Assembly (NCBI GenBank): GCA_036567845.1
Contig: DATCTT010000027.1
Location: 11 to 64,010, forward strand
Direction: 5' to 3'
DNA length: 64,000 nt
Source of the DNA: Candidatus Ozemobacteraceae bacterium
GTDB taxonomy: Bacteria > Muiribacteriota > Ozemobacteria > Ozemobacterales > Ozemobacteraceae
The position numbers were made by a program, and so were the translations under genes. The notes under the pieces were generated by a model. The model was not told where the DNA came from. It saw only the letters and a program-made list of their open reading frames with translations, and did no database searches. Positions 12,287 to 56,650 of this stretch are shown piece by piece (within the stretch, counting starts at the first letter, position 1; each line of letters starts with the position of its first letter).

Positions 12287-12311
12287 CTGCGGAAAGGAAC
12301 CAGAGAAGACC

Positions 12312-41100: not shown

Positions 41101-41302
41101 CCGCGGCGGCCTTACGGGTGTAGGTGATCGCGACCAGCTCCATCGGCAGGATTCCCTGGCGGAGCAGGGCCACGATGCGTCGTGTCAGGACCTCGGTCTT
41201 GCCAGAGCCCGCTCCGGCAGCGATTTTCAGAAATCCGGCAGACGGCTCGCGAACGGCATCCTGTTGCTCGGGGTTCAGCCCGGTAAGGAGGTCAGTCAGC
41301 AT
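38192..41302 (-). CDS. UvrD-like helicase plus C-terminal RecB-type PD-(D/E)xK nuclease with a 4-Cys (Fe-S) cluster; second subunit of an AdnAB/AddAB-type helicase-nuclease
   Basis: Walker A AGAGSGKT. Nuclease IIDYKSHAF. Cys ligands YEQCPRRYFF ... CSTCAFAALC. 1036 aa, overlapping the upstream paralog by 11 nt. Confidence 0.85.
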   Translation of the reverse strand: MLTDLLTGLNPEQQDAVREPSAGFLKIAAGAGSGKTEVLTRRIVALLRQGILPMELVAITYTRKAAAEMKERLAHPARGLTASVLRNLQVSTFHAFLGDLLRRDPFGAGIDRGDTVLTEGGRRLLLADLLEEFRAAHADALLEGPEAFGPDQAHHVTSLFPGLLGHVRRFLLSPGGFQRFTDERFARRGTPPSPLEKRVQIWFFRFYSRYLQKLGERHLLDFDEILLRSSALIADQRAAGSDPAQRVFLIDEFQDNNQEQFGIIRTFVDGREGHITVVGDEKQSIYRFQGADIRTFHAFPATRTIWLNQNYRSVQEILTLADRYISRNIENPPPPQTADRGASTRPRPIACLLAAAPGSSEEAETIADLIQTLVRGGLAIETRQGKRPAAYGDFAIIVHSVNRLPRAYEDALLVRGIPYVMAGGLGFYARHEIAAVVAFLRLLVRPTDDLSLATILTGPQYGLSDAELSALFHDRREEHVSLLAHLLALPESVLPERVRSFRRLFVRLQGMSGTLGILDLVHAVLEQAGFLEHAAAQTDDLRRRRLENNLAKFVGIVRAFEANGVFTTLRDFLAYHDRTIESGVDEDEAGLGLEEGEAVKILTIHKSKGLEFPVVFLPNLHTRTFKREQGLFMTRDQGLVVHRKECEGSPEAEIRAVFDAEQVANSAEERRKLYVALTRARDLLVISGSETDIDKPGQPIGELAGMLRADETLGSVDALAEWPTVAERWLAAGTASSAPATPLPSQPADGVDLTPQITALTGRFLRLREEASRPRRVAGSGVSEEIYSLGDLDAYEQCPRRYFFQRRHIAPLAGPSESGRGPAVGNLVHRTLRLYHEGNVSALPDDVRRDRLFGLLDRLVPLHGEEGAAGRDRAAALLASYLASPLAATDAAHLEAEVNLRLEVTGTSDQDGPFLLRGFADRIDLRDGEVYIIDYKSHAFSPAAHAVYARQLALYLAAARRGLFGKSGALAFASAALAYLTETSVRIEPVDPDLPAFERSATELVARIRGERAWQPPAEAPCSTCAFAALCAKPPA

Positions 41303-44300
41303 CGTCGGAAGCCTCCTGCGTGGAATCGGGTGTCGGGAGGCGGAGCTGGTCGAGCCGTTCCTGGCAGAATGGTTGGAATTCGCAGTGCTTTGTCGGTGAA
41401 CGGTTGATGCAGGACATTGCCGAGGCCGCCGGAGAAGGATGGCAGTCGAACACCCGTTCTGAAACGATCCTTTCCATGAGCCGCTCCAGGGTGTCGCTGA
41501 AGGTGGCGAACTGGTCGGGTGTGACCTGGACGGCCCATTCGGGGCCTGCGCCCAGTCCGAGCATCGCCGATTTCAAAAAACCCGGCTGGAAGCCATTGTA
41601 TTTCCTTTTATATAGATCATCCTTCGGATACACGGTGCCGGCACACACCCGTTCATGGCCCAGCTGGCGCGCGGCAAGAAGATAGAAGGGAAGTTGGATT
41701 TCGGATGGCGGGCCGGATTCCGGGAATGCCTCGCGCAGCATCGAGGCGGCCGACTTTGCCGAACCCGTCTTGTAGTCGATGATCCAGATCGTGCTGTCCG
41801 CATCCTCGAGCCACCGGTCGATCCGCCCTTTGCAGGGATATCCGCGGAACTCGAACCGGAACCCCGCCTCGACGCCGATGGTGCCGGTCGCCGGAATCTG
41901 GCCGTTGACGTAGACGGCTTCGCGATACCGGTTCAGAATTTCCCGGGCCTGGCCGTCATACTGCTTCCGCTGGAGCACGGGGAGCTGGCCGAGAAGTGGC
42001 ACACCATGGGACCTCCAGAGGGCTTCCAACTCATCAAATCTTGGCGATCGGCCGCCCGCGAAGGTTCCAGCCGGGTCATGCAGAGCCTGGAGGCACGCGT
42101 GGATCGCGTTTCCGAAGATGAGCGCGGGTTGCCGCTCGATCCGGTCGTCGCGCAGGCGGAGGACGTGACGGTAGAAGAACCGTCGGGGACAGTCGATGAA
42201 ATCGCGAAGCGCCTGGGCAGAAAACCGGAATCCCGCGGGCAGTTCGGCCGGACAGGGGGGGGCAATTCCGAATCGGCGTGGTTTCAGAAGATCCCTGTCT
42301 GCTTCATCCGTGTCGGAGATTGCGTGGACGGCTTCAGACAGGCCCTGCAGGCCGGACTCCAGGCTCAGGCGCTCCTCCGGGGACAACCGGGCCAGGTGGG
42401 TGCGGAGTTCGCCGATCGTCAGGATTCGCTGTTCATGCCAGTCACGGTGGGGGTGAAGACCGAGTTCGTCCAGGAACGGCGCCGGCAGGGCGGGGTCGGT
42501 TCCGATGCGGCGGGGCATCGTGAGGATCAGCCCTTCTTCGGCCCGCGTCAGGGCAACATACAGCAACCGGCGTTCCTCTTCGAGATGGTCGGCGTGATCG
42601 GCGGGGTAGGGGTTGAAGAAGCGGATCTCCCTGTCACTTGCGTCGATCGCTTTCTGCACCGCGGCCAGGCCGGCCGAGCCGATCAGGAGGTTCTCGCGGA
42701 GGCGGACGGGGAACTGGTCCTCGCAGAGTCCCGTCACGAACACCACGGGAAACTCGAGCCCTTTCGACTGGTGGACCGTCATCAGCCGCACCCCCGGCGC
42801 TGCCGGGGCCACGTCGGCTGCCGGCTCATCCTCCTGTTCGAGGGTCGATGCGTAATACGTGAGCCACTCATCGAAGCTCGGCATCAGATCAGCGGCGACG
42901 GGGGGGCGGCCAAACTGTTTTTCCCGGACGTCGCAGAAATCGTCAATCATGTTCCGGAACCGCATGACATGCCGTGCTCCGGGAGACGCCGGGTCGGCGA
43001 CGAGATGCGGAACGGCGAGTAGAAGCCGGGCGAATAGGGTGACGAGCGGAAGGCCGATTCCGTCATGCAGGAGGCGCAGGGTCTCGCGGAACGCGATGAG
43101 CCGGGTGACTGTGTCCGGGGTGGGAGGGACGAAACCGTCGGGAAGCGGTTCGTCAGGCGGGCGGTCGAGCCAGGCGTCGAGTGCGGTCTCGAGAGCCGCC
43201 CCGGGGGGAAGGGCGGCGAGATACTGCTGGACCCAGATGGGGTCGAGGCCAAAAACGGGGGAGGCGAAGGCCCGCCGCAGAGGTTGCTCTCGGGCTTCCT
43301 CCGGACCTGCCGTCGCCTGGAGCAGCGAGGCGAGCGCCGTCACCTCTTCGGACCGAAAAAATTTCATATCACCGGCTATATCAAAAGGGATATGCATTGC
43401 CCGGAGAGCCTCAGACAACAGATCGATCTGGTAATTGTTCCGGACCAGGATCGCGATTTCGCCGGGGGTGAAGCACCGATGGGTCCCGTACGTGAGCAGT
43501 GAGGCGATGCGGCGGGCGATCATGCGCGCCTCGTCGAGCTCGTCACGGGCCTCGAGCAGCTCGACGAAGCCCTGACGGCTGCTGCGCGCCACAAGGCCGC
43601 CCGGGCTTCCGCCGGAAGGGGGACTTTTGGGGGCAAGCTCCTGCGACCAGTGCAGGTTGGAGGCCAGGGCGAGAATGTCGGCGGCGCTGCGGTAGTTGCC
43701 GCCGAGTGAAAACAGACGGGCTTTGAACTCGCGTCGGAAGGCGCTGCGCGAACCCATCATACCTGGATCCGCCCCGCGGAACCGGTAGATGCTCTGCAGT
43801 GGGTCGCCGATCACCGCGATGCGGGGGGGCGGCACCTCGTCCGGGCTTTTCAGCAGCCGGAGAAGGAGATACTGGGCCGGGTCGGTGTCCTGAAACTCGT
43901 CGACGAGGACGACCCGGAACCGGTCGCGATACCGGGCGGCCGTGTCGGGATCGCGGAGAGCCTGGATCGAGAACGAGATCAGATCGCGGAAATCGAGGTA
44001 GCCGGTCCGGACCCGCTCCTCCTCATACCGCCGGTACAGATGCAACAGCTCGTCGAGACGCTGCCTGGCCATGGAGGGCGGTGGATGGGCGGTGATGGCC
44101 TGTTGGAGCTGGTCGGGAGTCACGAGATTCGATTTGAGCAGCGAGATGAACGTGAGCACTTCGAGCTGGAAACCGCGTTTGGTGAGCACCCGGCCGAACA
44201 CCGGGAAGGTTTCCGGAGTCAGTCGTGCACAGATGCCCGCCATCAGCAGGGCTTCCTTGAAGCCCGTGAGCAGTCGGAAATCCGGCCTGATGCCAACCAG

Positions 44301-44603
44301 GTGATACCGCTCGCGAAGCAGGCGGGCACAGAACGAGTGGAACGTTGAGATCCAGCACTCGTCGTAGCTGTGGGGGTGGTATTCCATGACCCGCCCCCGG
44401 AGTTCGCGTGCGGCCTTTTCCGAGAAGGTCAGGGCAAGAATCTCGCGGAGCCTGGTGCCTTCAGAGAGCAGGCGGCCGATCAGCACTGCAATGGTCCGGG
44501 TCTTGCCGGTGCCGGGGCCGGCGACGATCATTGTGGGCCCCTTGAACCCGCGGATGATGGCCTTCTGTTCGTCGTTCAGTCGGTCGAAGTCTTCGGAGAG
44601 CAC
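41292..44603 (-). CDS. UvrD-like helicase plus C-terminal RecB-type nuclease with a 4-Cys cluster; first subunit of an AdnAB/AddAB-type helicase-nuclease
   Basis: Walker A AGPGTGKT, DEFQDTD (motif II). Nuclease IIDYKTGSAKS. Cys ligands FIDCPRRFFY ... CINRSPTKHCEFQPFC. 1103 aa. Confidence 0.85.
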   Translation of the reverse strand: MLSEDFDRLNDEQKAIIRGFKGPTMIVAGPGTGKTRTIAVLIGRLLSEGTRLREILALTFSEKAARELRGRVMEYHPHSYDECWISTFHSFCARLLRERYHLVGIRPDFRLLTGFKEALLMAGICARLTPETFPVFGRVLTKRGFQLEVLTFISLLKSNLVTPDQLQQAITAHPPPSMARQRLDELLHLYRRYEEERVRTGYLDFRDLISFSIQALRDPDTAARYRDRFRVVLVDEFQDTDPAQYLLLRLLKSPDEVPPPRIAVIGDPLQSIYRFRGADPGMMGSRSAFRREFKARLFSLGGNYRSAADILALASNLHWSQELAPKSPPSGGSPGGLVARSSRQGFVELLEARDELDEARMIARRIASLLTYGTHRCFTPGEIAILVRNNYQIDLLSEALRAMHIPFDIAGDMKFFRSEEVTALASLLQATAGPEEAREQPLRRAFASPVFGLDPIWVQQYLAALPPGAALETALDAWLDRPPDEPLPDGFVPPTPDTVTRLIAFRETLRLLHDGIGLPLVTLFARLLLAVPHLVADPASPGARHVMRFRNMIDDFCDVREKQFGRPPVAADLMPSFDEWLTYYASTLEQEDEPAADVAPAAPGVRLMTVHQSKGLEFPVVFVTGLCEDQFPVRLRENLLIGSAGLAAVQKAIDASDREIRFFNPYPADHADHLEEERRLLYVALTRAEEGLILTMPRRIGTDPALPAPFLDELGLHPHRDWHEQRILTIGELRTHLARLSPEERLSLESGLQGLSEAVHAISDTDEADRDLLKPRRFGIAPPCPAELPAGFRFSAQALRDFIDCPRRFFYRHVLRLRDDRIERQPALIFGNAIHACLQALHDPAGTFAGGRSPRFDELEALWRSHGVPLLGQLPVLQRKQYDGQAREILNRYREAVYVNGQIPATGTIGVEAGFRFEFRGYPCKGRIDRWLEDADSTIWIIDYKTGSAKSAASMLREAFPESGPPSEIQLPFYLLAARQLGHERVCAGTVYPKDDLYKRKYNGFQPGFLKSAMLGLGAGPEWAVQVTPDQFATFSDTLERLMERIVSERVFDCHPSPAASAMSCINRSPTKHCEFQPFCQERLDQLRLPTPDSTQEASDDAD

Positions 44604-44616: not shown

Positions 44617-44940
44617 TCAGGGGGTTCGGGGATAGACGAGATCGAACTGGGGGGAGCCGGTCACCGCCCAGAGAATCACGAAATGGTGGATGACATCTGA
44701 GAGGGCCAGTGCCCCGCCCAGAACTGCGAGGTGCCGCTTCCAGACGGGATCTCTCACGAAGGCCGACACGAGCAGGATCAACAGGCCGATGAGGCCGTGA
44801 TGGATGCGGTAGCCGAAGGTGAGCCGGCCGACGCTCGCAGCCGTGTCCCGGGCCGCCTCGAGACCGAAGCCGAACCGCAGGGCGGCCGTCACGGCCTCGA
44901 TTGCCGCGGCTAGAAGGAAAATCGGTTTCCAGGAGCTCAA
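44617..44940 (-). CDS. Small hydrophobic membrane protein (about 3 TM helices) upstream of the helicase-nuclease pair
   Basis: PIFLLAAAIEAVTAAL, HGLIGLLILLVSAF, LAVLGGALALSDVIHHFVILWAV. It overlaps the VWA gene stop by 4 nt. Confidence 0.4.
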   Translation of the reverse strand: MSSWKPIFLLAAAIEAVTAALRFGFGLEAARDTAASVGRLTFGYRIHHGLIGLLILLVSAFVRDPVWKRHLAVLGGALALSDVIHHFVILWAVTGSPQFDLVYPRTP

Positions 44941-46562
44941 TTGTCGCTGTCCGTGTCGGGAAGATCGGGCGTTCCGGGAAGATCCGTTCCGGCGTCCGCC
45001 GACCCTTCCCCGGATGTTGGCACTTGATACTCATGACTCAGGCTTTTTTCCAGCCCTTCGAGCATCTGATTCGTCCCGGCGGCATTCTCGTCGGCAGCCT
45101 GCTGCTGATCCTCCTGCATCCGGCGTTTCGAGGCGTTCAGCTCGTCGATGTTCCGGTTCACGCCGTCGATGTGGGCGTCATGGCGCTGCTGGTTCTGATC
45201 GTGCAGCTCGCGCATCTCGCGATTGAGCTGATCGGTTCGGGCGTTCTGGTCGCGTTTGAAATCCTGCCGCCATTGCTGATGAGCGTCATGAGAGGCTTTC
45301 AGGGTGGCGTTTAATTCCGCGATATGGGCTTTTTCCTGTTCCGATGCTCCGGGACGGGGCTGGATGGGTTTGTATTCCTGCCACACGGGCATCGCCTCCG
45401 TCGCGATATCGGTCCAGGTGGCAAGCTGATTCCGGTCCACATGGGCGATATCCGGCGATGTGCCCGTGTCGGGGGCCTCGACGCGGCCGAGCCGGACGTC
45501 GTGGCGGATGGTCCTGGTTCCCAGGCCCGTGGCTGCGGATGCGGCATCCCCTTCCCGGATGGCGATGCCAGGGATGCCCCGCCCCGGCTTGTCCGATGCG
45601 CCGGGCTGGCGTTCGACCCGGACCGGATCGAGGGGGGCGACGTAGGCGCCCGTGCCCTGGTCTTTGCGGCCTTGGTGCTCGCTGACCACCGTCAGCTCGC
45701 GGCGCGAGCCGTCCCGCTCGGGGGCGGGTGTTGTATAGCTTAGTTTATATCTTCGCTCGAGCATCATTCGGGAGCTGATCTTCTGGAAAATGCCGGCCAG
45801 CTGTTCGGCCGACGGGGCCCGCAGCAAAGCTCCTTTGGTCGTGCGGGCGAGCTGCTCGAGGAAACTTTCGTCAATGCTTGTACCGAGGGCCACGCAGATG
45901 ACGCGGATGCCGTTCTTGCTGGCGTGGGCGATCACCTCATCGGCTTTCTTCGTCGAAAAGCCGGGTTTGCCCTGCGGACTTTCGTCGCGACCATCCGTGA
46001 GCAGCACGATGGTCTTGCGGTCATCGGTGCCGGCAGCCGAGCGCAGCTGCTCGCAGGCCTGATACAGGGCGTCGAATAGGGCCGTGCCTCCCCATGGGCG
46101 CATTTTCGCGATGCCGCCGAGCAGGGGTTCCTGTTCGCGCGTGAACTCAGTCACGAGATCGACGTCGCTTGCGAAGGTGATCAGGGAAATGCGCGCCGGC
46201 ATGTTCATCCCTTTCACGAACATCGCCGCCGACTCCTTCACCGTCGTGACCACAGGTTCCATGCTCGAGGAGCGGTCGAGAAGAAGGGCAATGAACGGCT
46301 CCCGGCGGACGAGATCGATGGTGAAACTCGTGATCGGCGTTTCGCGTTCGTGCAGGGTGAAGGCATCATGGAGGAGTTCTGTGGCATCCGGGGTGAACAC
46401 CCGCATCATCACCCGGATCTTCGGGTAATCGATGGGTGACACGGTTTCGATCACCGAGGAAAATCCTGGATCGGCCGCGTGGGCCGGCGATCGGCCCGTC
46501 AGGGCGAACGTGAGCAGGAGCAGGACCACCAGCCATACATGGCCGGGACGACGGGTGCGCAT
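44937..46562 (-). CDS. Secreted von Willebrand factor A (VWA) domain protein with a C-terminal coiled-coil/Gln-rich tail
   Basis: Signal peptide ...LTFALTGRSPAHA. MIDAS motif LLLDRSSSM, VLLTDGRD. C-terminal QQWRQDFKRDQNARTDQLNREMRELHDQNQQRHD. Confidence 0.75.
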   Translation of the reverse strand: MRTRRPGHVWLVVLLLLTFALTGRSPAHAADPGFSSVIETVSPIDYPKIRVMMRVFTPDATELLHDAFTLHERETPITSFTIDLVRREPFIALLLDRSSSMEPVVTTVKESAAMFVKGMNMPARISLITFASDVDLVTEFTREQEPLLGGIAKMRPWGGTALFDALYQACEQLRSAAGTDDRKTIVLLTDGRDESPQGKPGFSTKKADEVIAHASKNGIRVICVALGTSIDESFLEQLARTTKGALLRAPSAEQLAGIFQKISSRMMLERRYKLSYTTPAPERDGSRRELTVVSEHQGRKDQGTGAYVAPLDPVRVERQPGASDKPGRGIPGIAIREGDAASAATGLGTRTIRHDVRLGRVEAPDTGTSPDIAHVDRNQLATWTDIATEAMPVWQEYKPIQPRPGASEQEKAHIAELNATLKASHDAHQQWRQDFKRDQNARTDQLNREMRELHDQNQQRHDAHIDGVNRNIDELNASKRRMQEDQQQAADENAAGTNQMLEGLEKSLSHEYQVPTSGEGSADAGTDLPGTPDLPDTDSDN

Positions 46563-46696: not shown

Positions 46697-47101
46697 ATGA
46701 AATTCATCGGGGCCGACACGCACAAGTGCGTGGGAGCGAAGAGCTGCGAGAAGACCTGCGCCAGGACGTTTTTCAAGACCGAGGATGTGGCGTATTCGGC
46801 GATCCGTGTCACGCGCACGAAAGACGGGTGGGACATCAACGTCTGCAACCAGTGCGGCAAATGCATCGAGATCTGCCCGGAGAAGGCCATTTCGCGGAAC
46901 AGGGCCGGCACCGTCGTGATCGACAAGTCCCTGTGCGTCGGCTGCTTCATGTGCGTCGGCTTTTGCCCGACGCTGTCGATGCGCGTGGCGCCCGGCGGTC
47001 GTGAGCCGTTCAAGTGCGTTTCCTGCGGCGCCTGTGCCAAGGCTTGCCGAAGCTGTGCCCTGACCCTGAGTGAGCGCGATCACGCGCAGCTGCCGTCTTG
47101 A
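46697..47101 (+). CDS. 4Fe-4S ferredoxin-type protein (probable electron-transfer partner of AOR)
   Basis: RBS CAGGAGG. CNQCGKCIEICP and CVGCFMCVGFCP (two CxxCxxCxxxCP motifs), plus extra Cys pairs. 134 aa. Confidence 0.75.
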   Translation: MKFIGADTHKCVGAKSCEKTCARTFFKTEDVAYSAIRVTRTKDGWDINVCNQCGKCIEICPEKAISRNRAGTVVIDKSLCVGCFMCVGFCPTLSMRVAPGGREPFKCVSCGACAKACRSCALTLSERDHAQLPS

Positions 47102-47126
47102 CGGATCGAGGAGAGGAGTGAATAAT

Positions 47127-49322
47127 ATGATAGACTATACTAAACGGACCTCGTATCTGGGTGATCTGGAAAAGCAGCGAGGCGCTCACCGGCTCGTCTT
47201 CGAGGGGAGCTTCAAGCCGGGACTGCCTGAGCGCGGCTACAACAACCGCACGCTGTTCATCAACCTCTCGACGAAGACCATCACCGAAAAGCCGGTGACG
47301 GAACAGATGAAGGAGATCTTCATCGGCGGCCGCGGCTTCGGTCTCTGGTATCTCTGGAATGCTGTCACCCCAAAGACCCGCTGGAACGACCCCGAGAACG
47401 AGATCGTCATCAGCCCCGGGCCCCTCGGCGGCAACACGCAGTATCCGGGTTCCGGCAAGTCGCTCGTCGTCTCCCTGTCGCCACTCACCGACATTCCGAT
47501 CGACAGCAACGTCGGCGGGCATTTCGGGCCCCTGCTGAAGTTCAGCGGCTTTGATGCCCTCGAGATCCAGGGAAAGGCGGATGCTGACGTCGTCATCTTC
47601 ATCGACGGGCAGAAGGGGGTCATCCGGGTCGAGGAGGCACCGCTCGAAAGCGTCGACAGCCATATCGCCGCGGATATATTCACACACATGTATGCCGAGA
47701 ACGAACTGGACCGGCGGAACATCTCGGTCATCGCTTCGGGCAAGGGCGCCGATCATGCCCTGATGGGCTGTCTGAACTTCTCCTGGTATGACCACCGGCG
47801 CGGCGTTGCGCGGCTCAAACAGGCCGGTCGGGGCGGCATCGGAACGGTGTTCCGGAACAAGAAGGTCAAGGCTGTTGTCGTGCGCGGCCCGGCCGTCAAG
47901 GGCGACATGAACCGTCCCGCCGATCTGGACCGGGTGCGCAACACCGGCATCCGGTTGCATCGCGAGATCCACGATAACGATGACAAGCAGTGCCACATGC
48001 GGACACAGGGCACCGCCCACCTCGTCGAGGTGATGAGTGACTACGATCTGCTGCCGGTCTGCAACTTCCAGTATGGTTCCCACGACGATGTAAAAAATAT
48101 CGCATCGTATAAATGGGGCGAACGGTTCACCCAGGGAATTCCCGACGGCTGCTGGCATGGCTGCTCGATGGGCTGCTCGAAGGGCGCCGACGGCCATATC
48201 GTGAAGACGGGGCCCTACAAGGGCCACTCCGTCACGGTCGACGGTCCGGAATACGAGACGGCTGCCGGTCTCGGGTCGAACTGCGGCATTTTCGACCGCG
48301 ACTGGATCCTCGAGGGCAACTTCTACTGCGACACCTACGGCATCGACACCATCTCGTTCGGCACGAGCTGCAGCTTCGTGATGGAGTGCTGGCAGCGTGG
48401 CATCCTGAATGCCGAGCGCACCGGCGGGGTCGAGCTGACGTGGGGCAATGGCGAGGCGCAGATGGAGCTGCTGCACCAGATGGCTCGCAACGAGGGGTTC
48501 GGGGCGATCGTCGGCCAGGGTGTCGCCCGCATGAAAAAACTGTTCATCGAAAAAGGTTGGGGGGATCCGAAACTGATCGAGGATATTGGCATGGAGGCGA
48601 AGGGCCTCGAATACTCCCAGTATCTCTCGAAGGAGTCCCTGGCGCAGCAGGGCGGTTATGCCCTGACCAACAAAGGGCCGCAGCACGATGAGGCCTGGCT
48701 GATCTTCATGGACATGGTCAACAACCAGCTGCCTACATTCGAGGACAAGGCAGAGGCCCTGCATTACTTCCCGATGTTCCGCACCTGGTTCGGTCTGAAC
48801 GGCCTGTGCAAACTGCCCTGGAACGACGTCGAACCGGATGACAACCGCAAGGTCAATAGTCCGATGGAGGCGGCGAAAGTGCCGGCCCATCTGCAGAACT
48901 ACTGCGATCTCTTCTCCGGCATCACCGGCCGCGAGATGAACCGCGACGAGCTGGTCTTCATGTCCGAGCGGGTCTACAACTTCCAGCGCGTTTTCAACCT
49001 GCGCATGGGAAAGGGGCTGCGCAAGTTCGACCAGGCGCCCTACCGCTCGACCGGCCCTGTCACCCGCGAGGAGTATGAATCGCGCGCCGAGCGGTATGAC
49101 AAGCAGCTTCGGGAACAAATCGGCATCGACCCGGCCGGAAAATCCGTCGACGAAAAGATCGCTCTCCACCGGAGATGGCGCGAAGATCGGTATCAGAAGC
49201 TCTGTGATGCCGTCTACAAGCGCCGCGGCTGGACAAAGGATGCCGTGCCGACCCTCGAGACCCTGAAAAAACTCGGCATCGATTTCCCCGACGTCGTAGA
49301 GGTCGTCAAAAAGTATCTCTGA
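47127..49322 (+). CDS. Aldehyde:ferredoxin oxidoreductase family (tungsten/molybdopterin) enzyme
   Basis: RBS GAGGAGAGGAG. N-terminal AOR_N IFIGGRGFGLWYLW. Length 731 aa, with a C-terminal extension beyond typical AORs of about 600 aa. Confidence 0.85.
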   Translation: MIDYTKRTSYLGDLEKQRGAHRLVFEGSFKPGLPERGYNNRTLFINLSTKTITEKPVTEQMKEIFIGGRGFGLWYLWNAVTPKTRWNDPENEIVISPGPLGGNTQYPGSGKSLVVSLSPLTDIPIDSNVGGHFGPLLKFSGFDALEIQGKADADVVIFIDGQKGVIRVEEAPLESVDSHIAADIFTHMYAENELDRRNISVIASGKGADHALMGCLNFSWYDHRRGVARLKQAGRGGIGTVFRNKKVKAVVVRGPAVKGDMNRPADLDRVRNTGIRLHREIHDNDDKQCHMRTQGTAHLVEVMSDYDLLPVCNFQYGSHDDVKNIASYKWGERFTQGIPDGCWHGCSMGCSKGADGHIVKTGPYKGHSVTVDGPEYETAAGLGSNCGIFDRDWILEGNFYCDTYGIDTISFGTSCSFVMECWQRGILNAERTGGVELTWGNGEAQMELLHQMARNEGFGAIVGQGVARMKKLFIEKGWGDPKLIEDIGMEAKGLEYSQYLSKESLAQQGGYALTNKGPQHDEAWLIFMDMVNNQLPTFEDKAEALHYFPMFRTWFGLNGLCKLPWNDVEPDDNRKVNSPMEAAKVPAHLQNYCDLFSGITGREMNRDELVFMSERVYNFQRVFNLRMGKGLRKFDQAPYRSTGPVTREEYESRAERYDKQLREQIGIDPAGKSVDEKIALHRRWREDRYQKLCDAVYKRRGWTKDAVPTLETLKKLGIDFPDVVEVVKKYL

Positions 49323-49379
49323 CAATAGTTCATTCCTGCTTCCGTTTCCCTTCGGCTTTTCGAGCCGATCAGCCCGTTT

Positions 49380-49877
49380 ATGACGGCCAAACGGGCTTTC
49401 AGTGCAATTTTCGAGGGGAGCTGTCCGAAAGTCTCCGTTTCGGGGAGGAAATGCGTGCGAACGACGCAGGCGGATGTGGAGCTGCTGATGAAGCGGCTGG
49501 TGGAGCCGGTGCGGAAGATGCTTCGGGAAAGCGGAGGATTTCTTCCGTTTGGGGCGTATCTCGACACCGCCCGCCGTGTCCGGAAGTTCCAGGCCGAGGT
49601 CGATGACGCGTGGGACCAGGATGAGCTCGCGGGGTTTTTCGAGGAAAAATTGCAGGGATATGCAGCCGCGAAGAAAGCGGTCGCGACCGCCATCGTCCGC
49701 GACGTGCGTGCAGCGCCGCCCGGAAAGCGCAAGGCGGAAGACTGCGCCGCGTTTGCGCTCGATCACGTCGACGGCTACTCGGTCATCGTCTTTCTGCCGT
49801 ATGTGATCGACGAAGGCGGCAAGGTGTTGTTCGGAGAGCTGTTCGCGATCGACGGCGACAGCAGGATCTTTTCATGA
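49380..49877 (+). CDS. Hypothetical protein (165 aa)
   Basis: ORF only; no motif recognised. It lies between AOR and the ThiF-like gene. Confidence 0.35.
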   Translation: MTAKRAFSAIFEGSCPKVSVSGRKCVRTTQADVELLMKRLVEPVRKMLRESGGFLPFGAYLDTARRVRKFQAEVDDAWDQDELAGFFEEKLQGYAAAKKAVATAIVRDVRAAPPGKRKAEDCAAFALDHVDGYSVIVFLPYVIDEGGKVLFGELFAIDGDSRIFS

Positions 49878-49997
49878 GCAGATTTTGAAACCCGCTCCGA
49901 CGGTATGGGAGCAGCGCGGCGCTCGAGCGATCAAGGTTGTCGGGGGCATGCCAGGTTGATGTAGGGGCATATTTATAACCAGCCCGTCACGATATGT

Positions 49998-50873
49998 GTG
50001 AGGATTGATGCAAAGGAAAGGCATTGCGTGAAGTGCAGAATCAATGAGCGGGATGCGGAGATCGGGGGCGGGACCAGCCTTGGAAAATTGGCTGAGGCGC
50101 ACTGCCCGGGGGCGGATCTGTTCATCCTGAACGGGTGCCCCGCGGCGCCGGATACGATTCCAGGGGAAGGCGACGCGATCGTGTTCATCCGGCGCGGCGT
50201 GAAGCCGGCCCCGGAGGAGCTGGATGCTCTCCTTGCGGCTCGTCACACCCCGGGCGTACATGAAAAGCTGAAACGATCCTCGGTCGGCATCGCCGGCTGT
50301 GGCGGGCTGGGCTCGACCGTTGCCCTGGCCCTCGCCCGCGTCGGGATTGGCCGACTTGTTTTGGCCGATCACGACGTGGTCGAGCCGAGCAATCTAAATA
50401 GGCAGCAGTATTATATAGATCAGATTGGCATGGCGAAGGTCGAGGCGCTCCGGACGACGATCGCCCGAGTAAACCCGGCCATACAGGTCACGGTCTGGGG
50501 GGAACGGCTGGTGCAGCCGACGGTTGCTTCGCTCTTTGCCGGTGTAGACGTGCTGGTTGAGGCGCTCGACCAGGCCGACCAGAAGGCGATGCTGGTCGAG
50601 GCGGCGATGAAGGCCTTCCCCACCAAACCTCTCGTGTTGGGCTCCGGGATGGCGGGGTGGGGAGGGAACGAGCGCCTGCGCACCCGGATTTCCGGCACCA
50701 TGACGGTGTGCGGTGACGAGACGGCCGAGGCCGTGCCCGGCCGGGGCCTGATGGCTCCACGCGTCGGCATTGTTGCACACATGCAGGCCAACCGCGTCAT
50801 GGAACTGCTTCTCGGGCCAGATGAGGGTATCGGCCCCGAACTCGTAACAGGGAGATTCGACGAGACATGCTGA
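49998..50873 (+). CDS. ThiF/MoeB-family E1-like adenylyltransferase with an N-terminal fused ThiS/MoaD-like beta-grasp domain
   Basis: GIAGCGGLGSTVALALARVG (Rossmann GxGxxG), NLNRQ. The N-terminal 75 aa are LFILNGCP...GDAIVFIRRG, ThiS-like but with no terminal GG. Confidence 0.75.
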   Translation: MRIDAKERHCVKCRINERDAEIGGGTSLGKLAEAHCPGADLFILNGCPAAPDTIPGEGDAIVFIRRGVKPAPEELDALLAARHTPGVHEKLKRSSVGIAGCGGLGSTVALALARVGIGRLVLADHDVVEPSNLNRQQYYIDQIGMAKVEALRTTIARVNPAIQVTVWGERLVQPTVASLFAGVDVLVEALDQADQKAMLVEAAMKAFPTKPLVLGSGMAGWGGNERLRTRISGTMTVCGDETAEAVPGRGLMAPRVGIVAHMQANRVMELLLGPDEGIGPELVTGRFDETC

Positions 50874-51064
50874 AAGTCAACGGCGAGCCGCTGAAATACC
50901 AGAAAGACATGACCGTTTCCGACGTCATCCGGGCGAAGAAATACTCGTTTCCTTTGTTGATCGTGAAGATCGATGGCGTCTACATTCCGCGCGAAAGCTA
51001 CGACATCACCCCCGTCCCGGACGGCGCCACCCTCGACATTATCCATCTCATCAGCGGCGGTTGA
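50867..51064 (+). CDS. ThiS/MoaD-family ubiquitin-like sulfur-carrier protein (C-terminal Gly-Gly)
   Basis: 65 aa, MLKVNGEPL...DGATLDIIHLISGG. It overlaps the E1-like gene by 7 nt. Confidence 0.7.
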   Translation: MLKVNGEPLKYQKDMTVSDVIRAKKYSFPLLIVKIDGVYIPRESYDITPVPDGATLDIIHLISGG

Positions 51065-51168
51065 GCCGTCCCGGTTGCGATTTTCCGGCGTTCTAAGTAC
51101 GCTTGAATGTCCACCACTCGACAACCCAGACATTTCCTTCCAAATTTCAGCCGAGGAGCGCGACATTG

Positions 51169-52263
51169 ATGAGCGACACGCCCGTCTTTCCCGAAATAAT
51201 CTTCGATACAGACCCCCTGGGCCTGGCCGATAAGATGGCCCCCCTTTCCCCGACCGTCGACATCATCATCGAATCCGATGCTGAAGCGGCCGTTGAGGAG
51301 GAGATCTCGTTCGGTCTCCCGACCCCGGAAGGCGAGATCATGGAGACGAGAGGACGGGTGAAAGCGGTTGCGCCACGCGAGGGCGGGTATGCCCTGACGG
51401 TCGAGATACGGGAAGTCGATGCTGCCATGCGAGGGACGGCCCATTCCAGTCTCAGGGGAACGGCGAAGCCTGCCGCTGGTGGCCTTCAGCCGGTCTGGGG
51501 AATCGGGCTGAAGCAGACCGACAACACCTATGCGATTCTGGTCAACAGCCCGGCCGGCGTGCTCACAGCAGCTCAGCTGAGCAAACTGGGCGAGCTGGCG
51601 GCCCGGGGGACGGGCGTGGCCAAGCTCACCCACGCCCAGCGGGTTATTCTTCTGGCGCCCATGGAGCGGCTCGAGGCGATTCGCGCCGAGCTCGACCAGG
51701 TCGGTCTTCGCGTCGGCGTGCTCCATAAGGGGGTCAGGAATGTGCGGGCGTGCTGTGGTGCGCGTTGTCGCTTCTCCGATCGCACCGATGCCATCGGAAC
51801 CGCCCTGGCAATCGACAAAGTCCTGTACGGGCGCGGGGAGACCTTCGATGTCAAGCTGGCGATCTCGGATTGCATGCGCAATTGCTCCGAAAGCTACTGT
51901 TGCGACATCGGACTGCTGGGAGGCGGAGGGAAATACCGCATGGTCGTCGGCGGTCGCGGCAGTCAGATCCCTTTCCGGGCTCTCCATCTTGCCGGCGATA
52001 TCGAGCCGTCCGACGTTCCGGCGGCCGTTGCCGAAGTCCTCGACTGGTACGAGCAAAACGCCCGCGAAGGGGAGCGATTCTGGAAAATGATGGTGCGGCT
52101 TGGCGAGGCCGAAGCTGCCAGGTTCGGTCTGGCTGATATTGCAGTAGCTATGGAAAAGCTCGGAGACGGGGTCGACGAAGTGCGACGGCTCCGGGAACAG
52201 CTGGCCCGGCTCGCCACGCTCCACCGCATGAAGAACGAACTCCGTTTTTGCCGACCGAAGTGA
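51169..52263 (+). CDS. Nitrite/sulfite-reductase-like Fe-S protein (ferredoxin-like half-domain plus 4Fe-4S/siroheme-type Cys motif) with an unassigned ~120-aa N-terminal extension
   Basis: RBS GAGGAG. RACCGARCRF and CMRNCSESYCCD Cys clusters are spaced like NIR_SIR Fe-S/siroheme ligands. A GIGLKQTDNTYAILVNSPAGVLTAAQLSKLGELA ferredoxin-like half-domain precedes them. Confidence 0.7.
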   Translation: MSDTPVFPEIIFDTDPLGLADKMAPLSPTVDIIIESDAEAAVEEEISFGLPTPEGEIMETRGRVKAVAPREGGYALTVEIREVDAAMRGTAHSSLRGTAKPAAGGLQPVWGIGLKQTDNTYAILVNSPAGVLTAAQLSKLGELAARGTGVAKLTHAQRVILLAPMERLEAIRAELDQVGLRVGVLHKGVRNVRACCGARCRFSDRTDAIGTALAIDKVLYGRGETFDVKLAISDCMRNCSESYCCDIGLLGGGGKYRMVVGGRGSQIPFRALHLAGDIEPSDVPAAVAEVLDWYEQNAREGERFWKMMVRLGEAEAARFGLADIAVAMEKLGDGVDEVRRLREQLARLATLHRMKNELRFCRPK

Positions 52264-52275: not shown

Positions 52276-54432
52276 ATGCCCGTTGGAAGCCACAAAGACG
52301 CATTCAAGGCCCATCAGCTGGTCAAAAAACTCGTTGCCAAGGACGGGGCAACTCCGCTGCCGACGCTTGCCGCAGAGATCCTCATGGATTTCGTCAAGAG
52401 TCAGCGGCAGATCAACCAGCGGGAGTCGGCGACGCACCTCCCGACGGATCAGAATGTGTATGACCAGGAGAAGCTGAAGGCTGCTCTCGAAGCCGTGGGC
52501 AGCTTGTGCGGCCAGTGCGAGGAAGCTCATAACGACGCCTGTTTCGTCAATCAGGCACGCCGCGTCCTGATCGCTGCCAGGACCGGCGTCGATCTGGGCC
52601 AGGCCTTCGACGGCAAGAAGAGCCTCGATGAGCTGGTGCGGGAGGCCGAGCGTCTCGCTGCCGAACGGGCGGCCGCCCCCCCGGAGACAGCCGCTGCGAG
52701 CGCCGGGACCACTCCCGTTTCCGGAGAGACGGACGCGGCTGCGACCGGAAGGCTGCGTCAGGAGCTTGCTTCCCTTCAGGAAAGGGAAGTGTTCCGCAGC
52801 ACGCTGATCGACGAGATCGTCGATACCATCGGCAAGGTGTCCGCGGGCAACTATGCTGCGAAAATGCCGGTGCATGAAGATGAGCAGCTCGGCAAGCTCG
52901 CGACGTCGTTCAATCTCATGCTTGATGCGATGAACGCGACGATGTCCCACCTCGATCACCTCGTGAACGCTCGGAACGCCGAGCTGAAGCAGATCATGAA
53001 CACCGTGCCGCTGGGCCTGCTCTCGCTGAACGCCGAGCTCCGGGTGAATCCGGAATACTCCCGGACCGCCGCCCTGATCTTCGGCGTGGACGAACTGCGG
53101 GGCCGCGATTACCCAGAACTGCTCGGACTTACGCCGCGCCGCCAGGAAGAGCGGAATGCGCTGAAGGATTATCTCGACATCCTTCTGATGGGCATCGACT
53201 GTCCCGACGCCGATCGCCTCAACCCCTTCGCCGAAATCCTGCTGCCCCGGGGTGTCTGGGTGCGTCTCCGTTATCATCTCGTGCAGACCGAGTCCGGGCA
53301 GGGGAACCTCCTCGTTGTCGTGGAGGACGTCACCGAGACGAAGAAGCTGGAAGCCCGGGTTGAAGCGACTCAGCGCGAAAGTGCCCAGATCAAGGCGATT
53401 GCCGAGGCTCCCGATCTGTTCCGCGACGTTATCGCCGACAATCAGAAGATTCTCGATCAGACCATCACCCTGCTTGATGGGAATGGCCCGGCATCCTCTC
53501 AGGAACGGATCGATGCCATGTTTCGGGGTGTCCATACGGTCAAGGGGGTGGCCGGAAGCTTTGGCATGTCCGAAGTCGGAAAGCAGGCGGGAATTCTCGA
53601 AAATGCCCTGGCCCGGGCGCGCGATCTCGGCTCCCTGACCACGGAACGGACGGAGGAGATCCGCCGCGAGCTCGGCCTTCTCGGCGAGGCGATGGGGGAC
53701 GTGAAAAAACTGGCGAAGCTCATTTTAGGGGATGATTCCCTGACCGGCGGCCCGGCTCTGAAGGTGTCCCTCGAGCAGCTGCAGGAACTCGAGCGCGAGA
53801 TGCGGGACGCGGCGGTGGACGAAGGGGTCCGCGCGCGTATGCTCGGCAAGATCCGTGACCTGCGGCTCGTCCCGGCGAAGAAAGCCCTGGAGCGCACGAT
53901 CCGTCTCGTTCCGGGGCTGATTTCCCGACTCAACAAGCAGGTGTCCTTCCGCCTCGAGGGCGAGGACGTTCCGTTGCCGGTTGAACTTGCGCAGAACCTG
54001 AACGGTCCTTTGATCCACCTTATCCGGAACGCGTTCGACCACGGTGTCGAGGACGAGGAACTGCGGCGCGGTGCCGGAAAGCCGGAGCAGGCGTCGGTCG
54101 CTCTCACCATTCACCGGCGGGAGCGCTGGATCGAAGTGGCCGTATCAGATGACGGCAAGGGGCTCGACCCTGAGGTGCTCCGGGCCAGCGCCATCCGCAA
54201 GGAGCTTCTCTCCCCGGAGGAGGCCGGGAATTTGTCGGCGGAAGCGTGTCTCAACCTGATCTTCCTTCCCGGCTTCTCGACGGCAGCTTCGGTCACCGAG
54301 ATCTCCGGGCGGGGTGTTGGGATGGATGTCGTCCAGACTGAAATCGCAAACATGGGCGGGCGGATCACCATTGATTCGACACCGGGAAAAGGGTCCCGGT
54401 TCACCCTGCACGTTCCGATAGCCTGCTCCTGA
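52276..54432 (+). CDS. Cytoplasmic CheA-like histidine kinase: Cys-containing N-domain - HAMP - sensor region - HPt - HATPase_c; no CheW-like P5 domain
   Basis: HAMP IDEIVDTIGKVSAGNYAAKMPVHEDEQLGKLATSFNLMLDAM. HPt FRGVHTVKGVAGSFG. HATPase N-box IRNAFDHGVED, G-boxes DDGKGLD and SGRGVGMDVV. N-terminal CGQCEEAHNDAC. No TM segments. Confidence 0.8.
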   Translation: MPVGSHKDAFKAHQLVKKLVAKDGATPLPTLAAEILMDFVKSQRQINQRESATHLPTDQNVYDQEKLKAALEAVGSLCGQCEEAHNDACFVNQARRVLIAARTGVDLGQAFDGKKSLDELVREAERLAAERAAAPPETAAASAGTTPVSGETDAAATGRLRQELASLQEREVFRSTLIDEIVDTIGKVSAGNYAAKMPVHEDEQLGKLATSFNLMLDAMNATMSHLDHLVNARNAELKQIMNTVPLGLLSLNAELRVNPEYSRTAALIFGVDELRGRDYPELLGLTPRRQEERNALKDYLDILLMGIDCPDADRLNPFAEILLPRGVWVRLRYHLVQTESGQGNLLVVVEDVTETKKLEARVEATQRESAQIKAIAEAPDLFRDVIADNQKILDQTITLLDGNGPASSQERIDAMFRGVHTVKGVAGSFGMSEVGKQAGILENALARARDLGSLTTERTEEIRRELGLLGEAMGDVKKLAKLILGDDSLTGGPALKVSLEQLQELEREMRDAAVDEGVRARMLGKIRDLRLVPAKKALERTIRLVPGLISRLNKQVSFRLEGEDVPLPVELAQNLNGPLIHLIRNAFDHGVEDEELRRGAGKPEQASVALTIHRRERWIEVAVSDDGKGLDPEVLRASAIRKELLSPEEAGNLSAEACLNLIFLPGFSTAASVTEISGRGVGMDVVQTEIANMGGRITIDSTPGKGSRFTLHVPIACS

Positions 54433-54493: not shown

Positions 54494-56371
54494 TTACAGA
54501 TCCATTTCCCAGGACACGGCCAGGCGCCGGCCGGGCTCGCCATATCCGTAGATCCTCTGGGAACGCGTGTTGGCGATGTTCAGCAGGGCCAGCCGGAACG
54601 TGCCACCGTGGAACCGGCTCAGATAGCCGATATCCGTGCGATCCGTCGGTGAGACGGAACGGGTGTTTCCGGCATCGTCCCAGCTCGCCCCCCACCGGGC
54701 ATACCGCGCAAACACCTCGCCGTTTCCGGCAGGATGACGCAGAGTCAGGGCTCCGGCATGCCCCGGTACGCGGGGCAGGGTGCAGCCTGAGCTCAGGATC
54801 CGGGCCCGGGGCGTGCGGGAATACTCGAACTCCATGCGGCAGCGGCCGCTGGACATCCGCACGTCAAGTTCGTGGCCGGTGATTTCGGCGGTTTCCAGGT
54901 TCGCCGCCTTGATCCCCCAGGCATAGGCCGGGTCCGTCGTGGCGACGGTTCCGATGAGATTGTCGGCGCGTGTCCGGTAGCTGCGCACCTCGATGATGCC
55001 ATCGGTACCTGCCCGCTGGGTAAGCGCGAGCGAGAGAGTGCGCCCTGTCTCGGGGGCCAGGTGCTCGTCGCCGTAGTTCGGGTAGAACCGTTCATTGAGC
55101 GACGGACGCCGGAAGGAAGTTCCCCAGGCGGCTTCCAGACTGCGTTTGCCCTGCTCCCGGGAAAGGGCGAGCTTGCCCGTCGCGGCGGTGTCGCCGGGGT
55201 TTGTATAACGATCGATACGTCCGATCGACCGGAGCTTCCAGCCGGCTGCCGGGCTCCAGGAAACCCCGCCCCGAAGCGCATCATCTGCCTCATTCCGCTC
55301 GAGGATGCCGTCGTTCGATGCGTCCGTTTCCTGATGTGAAACGCCCAGGTCGATCTCGCCGCGCGACAGATACCAGAACCGGTCGATCGCCTGCTGGTGC
55401 GTGAGAGAGTGCATGTCATACCCGTTCCAGGGATCTGTCGGATCATCCCCGGCAAGAACCGCGTCACGCCGGCCGGCCGTGTACTGCCACTCCCCGTCCG
55501 GAAGGGGCCGCGCGATGTGCAGATTCATCGTCGATTCCGACCGGTGCTGGATGAAGTCGGGATCGTCGACAGGGGCTGAAGTGATCGGGGAAAACGTGTC
55601 CAGGGCCGTGTCCGACGAACGCCAGCCGAGAAGGAATCGGACGGCAGTGCCGTTGGTCGATCGGCTCTGGATGCCGATCTGCAGGCGCTCCTGCTCGAAC
55701 GGATCCGTTTCGGCATTGCCCTGCCGTCCGTCGGCAGCCGACCAGCCCTGAGTCCGGAAGGTCATCCCGGAAACCCCCAGAGTGGCATCCCCAAGCGCCA
55801 ATGCCGCGTTCAGCTCGCGGCCGTTTCCCCCAACTCCGTCTGAAAACAGGCGAATACTCGAAGTGGCCGGAATGGCGGTTCGGAGATGGAGGACCCCCCC
55901 GATGGCGTTGCTGCCCCACCAGGATGCGCCTGAACCGCGGTACACCTCGACGGAATCGAGGAGCCCCGGGTCGATGTCGCCCAGGTCGGGATTGCCCGTG
56001 AAGGGGTCGTTCACCGGCATGCCGTCACGCAGAACGAGCACGCGCGCGCCGGTGAAGCCTCCCAGCATCGGACTGGCGAGCCGCCCCGGCCCGCCCTGGG
56101 GCGGAGTCACGAGCACGCCGCCCCCCAGAGCCTCGGGGCCGGTCGTCGGTAGAAATCTGCCGATATCCTCCGCCCCGGCACGGGAGACGGCATCGCCGAC
56201 GAGCTCGCACGGCGGCTTCCACGCCGGTGCCGTCACCGTGACCGTTGGAAGCTGCACGACCGGCTGGGAAGCTGTTACGGCGGGCAGACCGGTGGTCGGG
56301 TGGACCAGGAATGCCAACATCGGCAGCAGAAAACGGGAAAAGCGGGAAATGAAACGATGGAAAACGAGCAT
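54494..56371 (-). CDS. TonB-dependent receptor-like outer-membrane protein (plug domain clear; start uncertain; atypical C-terminal residue)
   Basis: Plug motifs RVLVLRDGMPVNDPFTG and EVYRGSGASWWGSNAIGGVLHL. Candidate starts at 56476, 56425 and 56371 (GAGGTG RBS before 56371, then a signal-like MLVFHRFISRFSRFLLPMLAFLV). It ends ...SWEMDL rather than an aromatic residue. Confidence 0.65.
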   Translation of the reverse strand: MLVFHRFISRFSRFLLPMLAFLVHPTTGLPAVTASQPVVQLPTVTVTAPAWKPPCELVGDAVSRAGAEDIGRFLPTTGPEALGGGVLVTPPQGGPGRLASPMLGGFTGARVLVLRDGMPVNDPFTGNPDLGDIDPGLLDSVEVYRGSGASWWGSNAIGGVLHLRTAIPATSSIRLFSDGVGGNGRELNAALALGDATLGVSGMTFRTQGWSAADGRQGNAETDPFEQERLQIGIQSRSTNGTAVRFLLGWRSSDTALDTFSPITSAPVDDPDFIQHRSESTMNLHIARPLPDGEWQYTAGRRDAVLAGDDPTDPWNGYDMHSLTHQQAIDRFWYLSRGEIDLGVSHQETDASNDGILERNEADDALRGGVSWSPAAGWKLRSIGRIDRYTNPGDTAATGKLALSREQGKRSLEAAWGTSFRRPSLNERFYPNYGDEHLAPETGRTLSLALTQRAGTDGIIEVRSYRTRADNLIGTVATTDPAYAWGIKAANLETAEITGHELDVRMSSGRCRMEFEYSRTPRARILSSGCTLPRVPGHAGALTLRHPAGNGEVFARYARWGASWDDAGNTRSVSPTDRTDIGYLSRFHGGTFRLALLNIANTRSQRIYGYGEPGRRLAVSWEMDL

Positions 56372-56487
56372 GGGGCCGCGCCACCTCTGAAAAAAATACC
56401 GCGCTCCCCGGGCCGGAGACGCCATGCGTCGTCTGTTCGGCACGATCTCCCGATCCGCGAGGAGTCGCGTGCTCATCCGACAGGTAT

Positions 56488-56650
56488 TCCGGCTCCCGGA
56501 TCATCCTCCCGCCGGCCCTTCCCACCCTTGCGGGTAGTGGCTTGCCGGCGTTTGTCCCCGATTACGGCGACGGGCTCGCGCAGGTGTTTCACCTGCTTCC
56601 CTGCTGGCCTGCGGTCAGGCCATGGCGATGAGGCCCTCTGGATACCACAA
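56488..56650 (-). ncRNA. Candidate cobalamin (B12) riboswitch in the leader of the TonB-dependent receptor gene
   Basis: The minus-strand leader reads ...GGGAAgcAGGTGAAAcACCTGcgcgagcccgtcgccGTAAtcgg...gcaaGCCACTacccgcaagGGTGGGAAGGccggcgggaggatgatCCGGGAGCCGGaa. This matches the conserved GGGAA/GGTGAAA/GTAA core and the CCACT...GGGAAG plus B12-box-like elements of E. coli btuB. Confidence 0.5.

Follow-up and report, generated by a model that had tools for sequence, protein, structure and literature searches.

A 64,000-nt stretch of DNA from Candidatus Ozemobacteraceae bacterium (GTDB lineage Bacteria; Muiribacteriota; Ozemobacteria; Ozemobacterales; Ozemobacteraceae; assembly GCA_036567845.1, contig DATCTT010000027.1, positions 11 to 64,010 of the forward strand; hereafter the window) contains an aldehyde:ferredoxin oxidoreductase (AOR) operon in which the genes for a polyferredoxin and the AOR are followed by those for a ThiF-like activating enzyme (E1) and a small ubiquitin-like protein (Ubl) of the sulfur-carrier type. 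Our analysis suggests, with moderate confidence, that the operon carries its own sulfur-relay pair, the E1 and a WorX-type Ubl, which would provide the sulfur of the AOR's tungstopterin. The initial annotation of this DNA had put forward, as the first of its readings, a module dedicated to sulfur transfer or tungsten-cofactor maturation, set in neither a thiamine nor a classical molybdopterin-synthase context. The suggestion has gained comparative evidence from AOR-E1-Ubl synteny, the subfamily of the Ubl, islands with Moa and tungstate genes, and the lack of a thiamine pyrophosphate (TPP) riboswitch, although the idea itself is not new.

All genes of the block lie on the forward strand. The first encodes a 134-aa WorS-type polyferredoxin (46697..47101) and the second the 731-aa AOR large subunit, WorL (47127..49322), which matches PF02730 AFOR_N (9e-48) and PF01314 AFOR_C (3e-98). 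After a gene for a lineage-specific protein of 140 aa (49455..49877) come the E1 gene (50028..50873), whose 281-aa product is a member of ThiF family 2 with an N-terminal ThiS-like fusion (PF14453 + PF00899), and the gene for the 65-aa Ubl sulfur carrier (50867..51064), which ends in HLISGG and is encoded on the same strand as the AOR, 1.5 kb beyond it. The E1 stop and the Ubl start overlap by 7 nt (ATGCTGA, 50867-50873). The five genes, their strand and their coordinates are as first annotated save for two start codons, those of the small open reading frame (ORF) and of the E1. The 7-nt overlap was likewise confirmed, as was the combination of an E1 bearing its own N-terminal ThiS-like domain with a free 65-aa protein ending in Gly-Gly (PF14453, PF00899 and Pfam ThiS). 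The longest E1 ORF starts at 49998 and encodes 291 aa, in which PF14453 was matched at aa 13-67 (1.7e-9) together with PF00899 (1.4e-38). As homologs are 281 aa long, the GTG at 50028 is probably the true start. No exact database record of the 291-aa form was found, and close homologs were used in its place. For the AOR, an alternative GTG at 47118, 9 nt upstream, would give the 734 aa annotated in relatives.

The association with AOR was surveyed from the AOR side by scanning an alignment of five AORs against metagenome contigs, which yielded 80 loci with AORs 60-99% identical to that of the window and with a GC content down to 38% in the four checked. A 65-aa Ubl homologous to the window Ubl was encoded within 3 kb of the AOR in 56 of these loci, and in 27 of the 36 whose AOR was flanked by 2 kb or more of sequence on each side. 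WorS-type ferredoxin genes were near the AOR in 38 of the 80 loci and ThiF-family-2 E1 genes in 27; thiG, thiH, thiE or thiC was near it in none (0/80). The co-occurrence of the pair with AOR genes, which the initial annotation had put forward as a check, was thus observed for the Ubl and for ThiF. Three contigs (L118, L141 and L160; loci are given L numbers throughout) each hold two tandem AOR paralogs with a Ubl gene between them, the ThiF gene lying between the AORs in L118 and upstream of both in L141 and L160.

In four of the loci (L142, L144, L161 and L166), the AOR gene is followed by an ABC transporter, MoeA, MoaA, MoaC and MoaB, and a short ThiF-Ubl pair stands divergently upstream; in the last three a DUF1697-like gene separates the AOR from the transporter. 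The binding protein of L142 is WtpA (TIGR03730, 297.6 bits; cut-off 242.75), so that this locus reads AOR-WtpA(BC)-MoeA-MoaA-MoaC-MoaB. Neither MoaD nor MoaE was recognised in the four islands. In L142-type islands, sulfur transfer appears to be the only step that lacks a gene, and ThiF and the Ubl would be the sole candidates for it. Tungsten-cofactor islands of this kind were seen in low-GC metagenome contigs, L170 being a further case.

Gene contexts were also surveyed from the E1, using the neighbourhoods of close and distant homologs plus 80 family members from reference genomes, annotated by tblastn with seed proteins from the window, E. coli and L008. At least five contexts were found. 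In the AOR operons (the window, L001/L002, L003, L006, L015 and Eisenbacteria L017), the order is ferredoxin-AOR-E1-Ubl, the Ubl being 65 aa long and ending in HL[IMV]SGG. This order, with or without a hypothetical gene after the AOR, is kept in four Ozemobacteraceae lineages (L001/L002, L003, L006 and L095) whose E1s are 57-91% identical, and also occurs in L015 and in Eisenbacteria L017 and L106. A WorS-type ferredoxin gene lies directly upstream of the AOR in L001, L003, L006, L015 and L017. Two Moa operons (L008 and L018) read PurM-E1-Ubl(HLITGG)-MoaA-MoaC-MOSC-MoaB, and in four further loci (L051, L072, L082 and L091) the Ubl that comes after the E1 is of the MoaD type, 77-88 aa long with a PV[SA]GG end, with MoaE and MoaC nearby in L051 and MoaA nearby in L091. 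Thiamine operons form another context. Finally, a Geobacter-type E1 paralog is flanked by genes for a pyridoxal phosphate (PLP)-dependent Cys/Met enzyme and for MnmA, the tRNA 2-thiouridylase, and has no free Ubl gene beside it, which suggests a role in tRNA thiolation for this branch, where the fused domain might act differently. Geobacter-type loci with a ThiS-ThiF fusion comprised L023, L024, L030, L038, L040, L055, L067, L078-L080 and L088. An 81-aa ORF upstream of the Geobacter-type E1 was discarded as an out-of-frame shadow of the PLP-enzyme gene.

The thiamine context gives rise to an alternative explanation: the pair may be housekeeping thiamine ThiF/ThiS proteins that feed a ThiG encoded elsewhere and stand beside the AOR by chance, or an E1 and Ubl shared by thiamine and pterin synthesis. 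About 27 of the 80 reference-genome members, mostly from Desulfuromonadales, are found in operons of the order E1-ThiS-ThiG-ThiH-ThiE, with a ThiS of 66 aa ending in FVGGG; it was in thiamine operons that the fused ThiS-ThiF with a solo ThiS was first described (PMC1779556), and a single E1 can serve several Ubl pathways (PMC11323500). Moreover, the window proteins score above the curated cut-offs of the NCBIfam models for thiamine ThiF and ThiS: the E1 reaches 263 bits on NF006395 (cut-off 159) and 213 bits on TIGR02354 (cut-off 152), and the Ubl 41.5 bits on TIGR01683 (cut-off 37.45). These models, however, are blind to context. They pass members from thiamine operons, AOR-linked loci, Moa operons and tungsten islands alike (window, L008, L017, L028 and L142), and for this reason database names do not settle function. 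The thiamine names appear to be over-specific for this E1/Ubl family.

Gene content and regulation also speak against a thiamine role. Searches of the whole 64-kb window by tblastn with E. coli seeds and by Pfam scans of the other main ORFs revealed no thiG, thiH, thiE, thiC, moaA, moaC, moaD, moaE or moeA, which extends the earlier remark that no thiG, thiH or moaE gene adjoins the pair; genes for tungstate or molybdate transport were likewise not seen in the window. None of thiG, thiH, thiE and thiC was present in seven Riflebacteria-clade loci with 10-kb flanks. The finding of the pair beside thiG in relatives had been named as an outcome that would make this a simple thiamine locus; the pair was never beside thiG in the Riflebacteria relatives examined, though it was in more distant family members. 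A TPP riboswitch (RF00059) was found 50-150 nt upstream of the E1 in five of six thiamine-operon loci tested, but in neither the window nor L003, L005, L006, L007, L008, L015, L017 and L018. No Moco riboswitch was detected in the window or in eight clade or AOR-linked loci.

The two kinds of carrier can be told apart by their sequences. The window Ubl has a Gly-Gly end and a Pfam ThiS match (4.7e-7). We built one hidden Markov model (HMM) from 53 AOR-linked Ubls, each less than 60% identical to the window Ubl and found via the AOR rather than via the Ubl, and another from 21 thiamine-operon ThiS proteins. The window Ubl scored 82.9 bits on the first model and 27.2 bits on the second, whereas thiamine-operon ThiS proteins reached 19-43 bits on the first. 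By that AOR-linked model, the Moa-operon Ubls and those of L005 and L007 are of the AOR type (68-90 bits). E. coli MoaD gave 1-2 bits on both HMMs, and the window Ubl is ThiS-like. The window Ubl is therefore assigned to a predicted AOR-linked subfamily of 65-aa proteins ending in HLxSGG, the label WorX-type resting on the HMM built here. Taken together with the absence of thiamine genes and of the riboswitch, these scores make the thiamine explanation, in its housekeeping or shared form, unlikely.

How the relay might work can be outlined from the properties of the E1. The GxGxxG, NLNRQ and Asp motifs are conserved in it. Alignment with E. coli MoeB and ThiF revealed that both CxxC zinc motifs are missing and that the C-terminus is truncated, and no rhodanese domain is present in the E1; the initial annotation had asked for a rhodanese domain or a CxxC zinc motif to be sought in this C-terminus, which has neither. 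Cys228 is the only candidate for a catalytic Cys, and among 88 family members this position holds Val in 48 and Cys in 31. Because the E1 lacks both a rhodanese domain and a conserved catalytic Cys, it probably acts in a MoeB-like manner, as an adenylase only. The E1 would bind the free Ubl and use ATP to adenylate the Gly-Gly end of the carrier, after which a sulfur donor from another locus would turn the acyl-adenylate into a thiocarboxylate; both steps follow family chemistry, and the ATP-binding and Arg/Asp motifs required for the first are present. The Ubl thiocarboxylate would then give the dithiolene sulfur in the conversion of cyclic pyranopterin monophosphate to molybdopterin (MPT), and the pterin would receive tungsten and be incorporated into the AOR, as gene context suggests for these last steps.

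Without a free C-terminus, the fused N-terminal ThiS-like domain of the E1 cannot be a carrier; a docking or regulatory function is more likely. The occurrence of a fused and a free ThiS side by side, at first called unusual, is in fact the normal architecture of this E1 family and was described in 2006 (PMC1779556). With the E1 as query, 7,956 proteins were retrieved at E<=1e-10, and PF14453+PF00899 was present in almost every one of the 120 matches listed; the closest relative from a metagenome-assembled genome (L001/L002) is 90% identical. This match and a 99% match to the small ORF place the window in Candidatus Ozemobacteraceae (Riflebacteria). Beside AOR, the fused form is the minority: the AOR-linked E1s of the metagenome survey are mostly short (193-212 aa) and without the N-terminal ThiS-like domain. 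Against structures in the PDB, the E1 scored about equally with MoeB (1jw9, 70 bits) and E. coli ThiF (1zud, 66 bits). In neighbour-joining trees with bootstraps, which were poorly resolved and are not leaned on here, the thiamine-operon copies grouped together and the window copy fell elsewhere with weak support. In 59 of 70 bootstrap replicates, the smallest clade to contain every thiamine-operon E1 left out the window E1, and the clade of short AOR-linked ThiF proteins was the only one with reasonable support (70/90).

Several points weigh against the proposal that the pair serves the tungstopterin of the AOR. Riflebacteria loci L005 and L007 carry the pair alone, with no AOR or Moa genes within 10 kb. 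The equivalog models, as described above, name both window proteins for thiamine synthesis. Resolution of the E1 phylogeny is weak: of 90 replicates, 7 recovered the exact thiamine-clade bipartition and 28 the window clade. Sequence alone does not decide between tungsten and molybdenum in this AOR, and the role of bacterial WorX/ThiF pairs has been deduced from context alone. Most important, MoaE, which a MoaD-type carrier requires as its partner in MPT synthase, was found beside the pair only in L051, and the Ubl is ThiS-like. This absence is the chief gap in the proposal and allows for three other possibilities: a role shared between thiamine and pterin synthesis, a different sulfur target, or a non-classical route.

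Another sulfur target would mean that the pair relays sulfur not to the MPT dithiolene but to a sulfido ligand on the tungsten centre, to tRNA 2-thiolation or to some other thio-cofactor. The occurrence of the pair without MoaE in AOR operons, Moa operons and tungsten islands agrees with this, as do the MOSC sulfur-carrier domain protein in the L008/L018 operon, the proximity of the Geobacter-type paralog to MnmA and the PLP-dependent Cys/Met enzyme, and the solitary pairs of L005 and L007. The islands, on the other hand, hold MoaA, MoaC, MoeA and MoaB, and their sole gap is the MPT synthase step, which the pair would fill. No tRNA-thiolation gene lies near the pair in the window clade, and the sulfido ligand is a candidate from general background. 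We thus regard a target other than the dithiolene as improbable. A non-classical route would go further than the reading we prefer, in that the E1 and the WorX-type Ubl would form a tungstopterin-dedicated relay replacing MoeB/MoaD and working without a classical MoaE, on a scaffold such as a MOSC protein or the apo-AOR. This we consider quite unlikely. If true, it would give each AOR a private cofactor supply, and thousands of thiamine ThiF/ThiS annotations in the subfamily would be wrong.

The AOR itself appears to be a tungsten-type enzyme. The nearest solved structures (9g7j, 1aor and 8c0z) are all AORs, at about 170-183 bits. In the alignment with 1aor, the Thr of GTA, the Glu of GPEYE, the His of the Q-H-D/E site (G-C-H-I-K) and the D-x-x-G-x-D-T pterin motif are retained, as are three Cys of C-x-x-x-C-x-x-x-C and the distal Cys, the first Cys being one position off. 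Residue numbering in this alignment follows that of the P. furiosus AOR, also given in PMC13328260. By counting in the translation, the ferredoxin has 16 Cys in four [4Fe-4S] motifs, and it gave multiple matches to Fer4-family Pfam models; its N-terminus, MKFIGADTHKC, has no twin-arginine motif, and no Tat signal was found. The polyferredoxin is predicted to be the electron-transfer small subunit of the AOR. WorL, a four-cluster WorS and the lack of a Tat signal would fit a Class II tungsten-type AOR in the scheme of PMC13328260.

The initial annotation had also raised the possibility of a bacterial ubiquitin-like conjugation or defence system made up of E1 and Ubl; in such an anti-phage or conjugation system, the small ORF upstream of the E1 would be the E2 or JAB partner. 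The E1 Rossmann core does match the PADLOC E1-E2 (Cap2-like) profiles at up to 92 bits and the NCBIfam 6A-MBL cap2_3 model at 66 bits, the Ubl has the Gly-Gly end, and archaeal sulfur-carrier Ubls also make protein conjugates (PMC11323500). These matches, however, span the adenylation domain only (approximately profile positions 290-435 of 579), leaving the E2 part unmatched, and 92 bits compares with 263 bits for ThiF. No JAB, E2, CD-NTase or effector gene was found nearby with Pfam and PADLOC, and PADLOC returned nothing for the Ubl, the small ORF and the neighbours. The lack of a conserved catalytic Cys in the E1, the metabolic nature of the neighbours and the conservation of the block with AOR across lineages point the same way, and a conjugation or defence system is very improbable.

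The small ORF gives little support to that alternative. Its sequence is of coding type (GC at the three codon positions 0.65/0.43/0.75), and it has 12 homologs, all of 138-142 aa, of which the five with a source name all come from Candidatus Ozemobacteraceae. For this reason the GTG at 49455, which follows GGAGG, is probably the true start, rather than the ATG at 49380 that opens the longer 165-aa ORF (49380-49877). The ORF is present in L001/L002 but absent from L003, L006, L015 and L017, that is, from most syntenic relatives, and it appears to be a genus-level insertion outside the conserved module. No match was obtained in Pfam, NCBIfam, PADLOC or PDB sequences (the PDB profile search gave nothing below E = 0.1), so the suggested E2 or JAB fold was not borne out by profile searches. 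An AlphaFold2 model of the 140-aa protein from the 12-sequence alignment was too poor for a fold search (predicted local distance difference test score 44.8, predicted template modelling score 0.30).

Past the AOR stop, a 9-bp inverted repeat (AGCCCGTTT...AAACGGGCT) was read from the forward-strand sequence at 49371..49397. Its stem is present in the minimum free energy fold, although the spacer as a whole is not unusually stable (z -1.31), and the terminator scan made no call there; the repeat is possibly a weak terminator or attenuator of uncertain relevance. The spacers flanking the small ORF are not unusual in structure (z -1.31 and +1.39), and promoter and terminator scans gave nothing decisive.

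The genes around the block were annotated as well. Directly upstream lies an AddAB-like pair of UvrD-helicase/PD-(D/E)XK nuclease genes on the reverse strand (38192-41302 and 41292-44603), followed by a gene for a VWA-domain protein (44937-46562, reverse strand), an arrangement kept in L001 and L006. Downstream of the Ubl, a gene on the forward strand (51103-52263) encodes a 386-aa protein with NIR_SIR_ferr and NIR_SIR domains and an unassigned N-terminus of about 135 aa, and 13 nt further on begins a gene for a CheA-like kinase with HAMP, Hpt and HATPase domains (52276-54432, forward strand), which is an odd pairing. These two genes stand between the Ubl and a TonB-dependent receptor in the window only and are absent from the 90%-identical L001/L002. 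The NIR_SIR protein was considered as a sulfide source for the Ubl and set aside, as both genes are missing in the closest relative. The TonB-dependent receptor (54494-56476, reverse strand; Plug domain in L001) has a cobalamin riboswitch directly upstream (RF00174, 76 bits; 56462-56644, reverse strand), and it probably takes up B12 or another corrinoid. Elsewhere in the window, matches to ATP-citrate lyase were found on the forward strand at 10715-12286 (Citrate_synth_N and Citrate_bind) and 12255-14156 (CoA_binding, Ligase_CoA and Citrate_synt), which hints at a reductive tricarboxylic acid cycle or citrate cleavage in this Ozemobacteraceae genome. A gingipain-like Peptidase_C25 protein with a propeptide domain is encoded at 31474-33675 (forward strand).

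The locus adds an example from a candidate phylum (Riflebacteria) of a pair whose predicted function is already in the literature, and it is no new kind of system; a search for literature on Ozemobacter metabolism yielded nothing useful. The bacterial AOR-linked Ubl/E1 pair has been noted since 2006 and was still called function-unknown in 2026. What the comparison offers is a set of discriminators between thiamine and pterin members, namely the Ubl end (HLxSGG vs FVGGG), the subfamily HMM, the TPP riboswitch and the neighbouring genes. Since the curated models TIGR02354, NF006395 and TIGR01683 call all of these members thiamine proteins, thiamine prototrophy could be over-called when the metabolism of uncultured anaerobes is reconstructed. 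The pair also offers a tractable experiment on how tungsten enzymes acquire their cofactor.

Clusters of this kind have been described before. Iyer, Burroughs and Aravind (2006) reported ThiS-ThiF fusions with a second, solo ThiS. Row 3 of their Table 1 lists a separate set of Ubl genes that strictly adjoin an AOR gene and are in many cases joined by genes for an E1 and a 4Fe-4S ferredoxin; for these MoaD/MoeB clusters the authors predicted a role in producing the molybdopterin of the AOR tungsten cofactor (PMC1779556). As in those clusters, the window carrier adjoins the AOR together with an E1 and a ferredoxin, apart from thiamine and main molybdenum-cofactor operons. The members differ, however: the window carrier is ThiS-like (65 aa, HLISGG) and theirs MoaD-like (about 80 aa, PPVSGG); the window E1 is a ThiF family 2 fusion and theirs a MoeB with zinc CxxC motifs; and the window lacks MoaE, MoeA and the pyridine-nucleotide disulfide oxidoreductase. 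Arndt et al. described aorD and aorE as putative tungsten-cofactor maturation factors (PMC6365974). The Adams laboratory noted that a ThiS-like WorX and thiF adjoin WorL, stating the function of WorX as unknown but predicting it to lie in pterin biosynthesis (PMC13328260). The window resembles such WorX/thiF operons, for instance that of CsWOR87 of Cetobacterium somerae, in that a ThiS-like small protein and thiF adjoin the catalytic subunit; CsWOR87 is a Class I enzyme without WorS, whereas the window enzyme is assigned to Class II. There, too, WorX and thiF are regarded as pterin-cofactor processing factors rather than enzyme subunits (PMC13328260).

The thiamine ThiF family 2 of delta/epsilon-proteobacteria and Firmicutes shares with the window the PF14453+PF00899 enzyme and, after it, a separate ThiS of about 65 aa, passes the same HMM cut-offs and, in its thiamine-operon members, is about 50-57% identical to the window E1. 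It is set apart by thiG/thiH/thiE and the TPP riboswitch, all lacking in the window, and by the FVGGG end in place of HLISGG. With E. coli MoeB-MoaD-MoaE the window pair would share the proposed chemistry, in which Gly-Gly is adenylated and a thiocarboxylate gives the dithiolene sulfurs, and an E1 without a conserved catalytic Cys; unlike that system, it has no zinc CxxC, no MoaD-like carrier and no MoaE nearby, and the E1 scores only about 70 bits to MoeB. The experimental precedent for a role of an AOR-adjacent Ubl comes from archaea only. In Thermococcus kodakarensis, deletion of the AOR-adjacent Ubl lowered AOR activity to about 54% and abolished the activity of formaldehyde:ferredoxin oxidoreductase (FOR); both this Ubl and one of the ThiS family contribute to MPT and to tungsten-enzyme activity (PMC11323500). 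That Ubl, UblC (TK1065), is like the window Ubl in that its gene adjoins the AOR, and its deletion lowers tungsten-enzyme activity (PMC11323500); it differs from the window Ubl in being archaeal and of the MoaD type, in having a radical-SAM gene, not an E1 gene, as its partner, and in forming protein conjugates.

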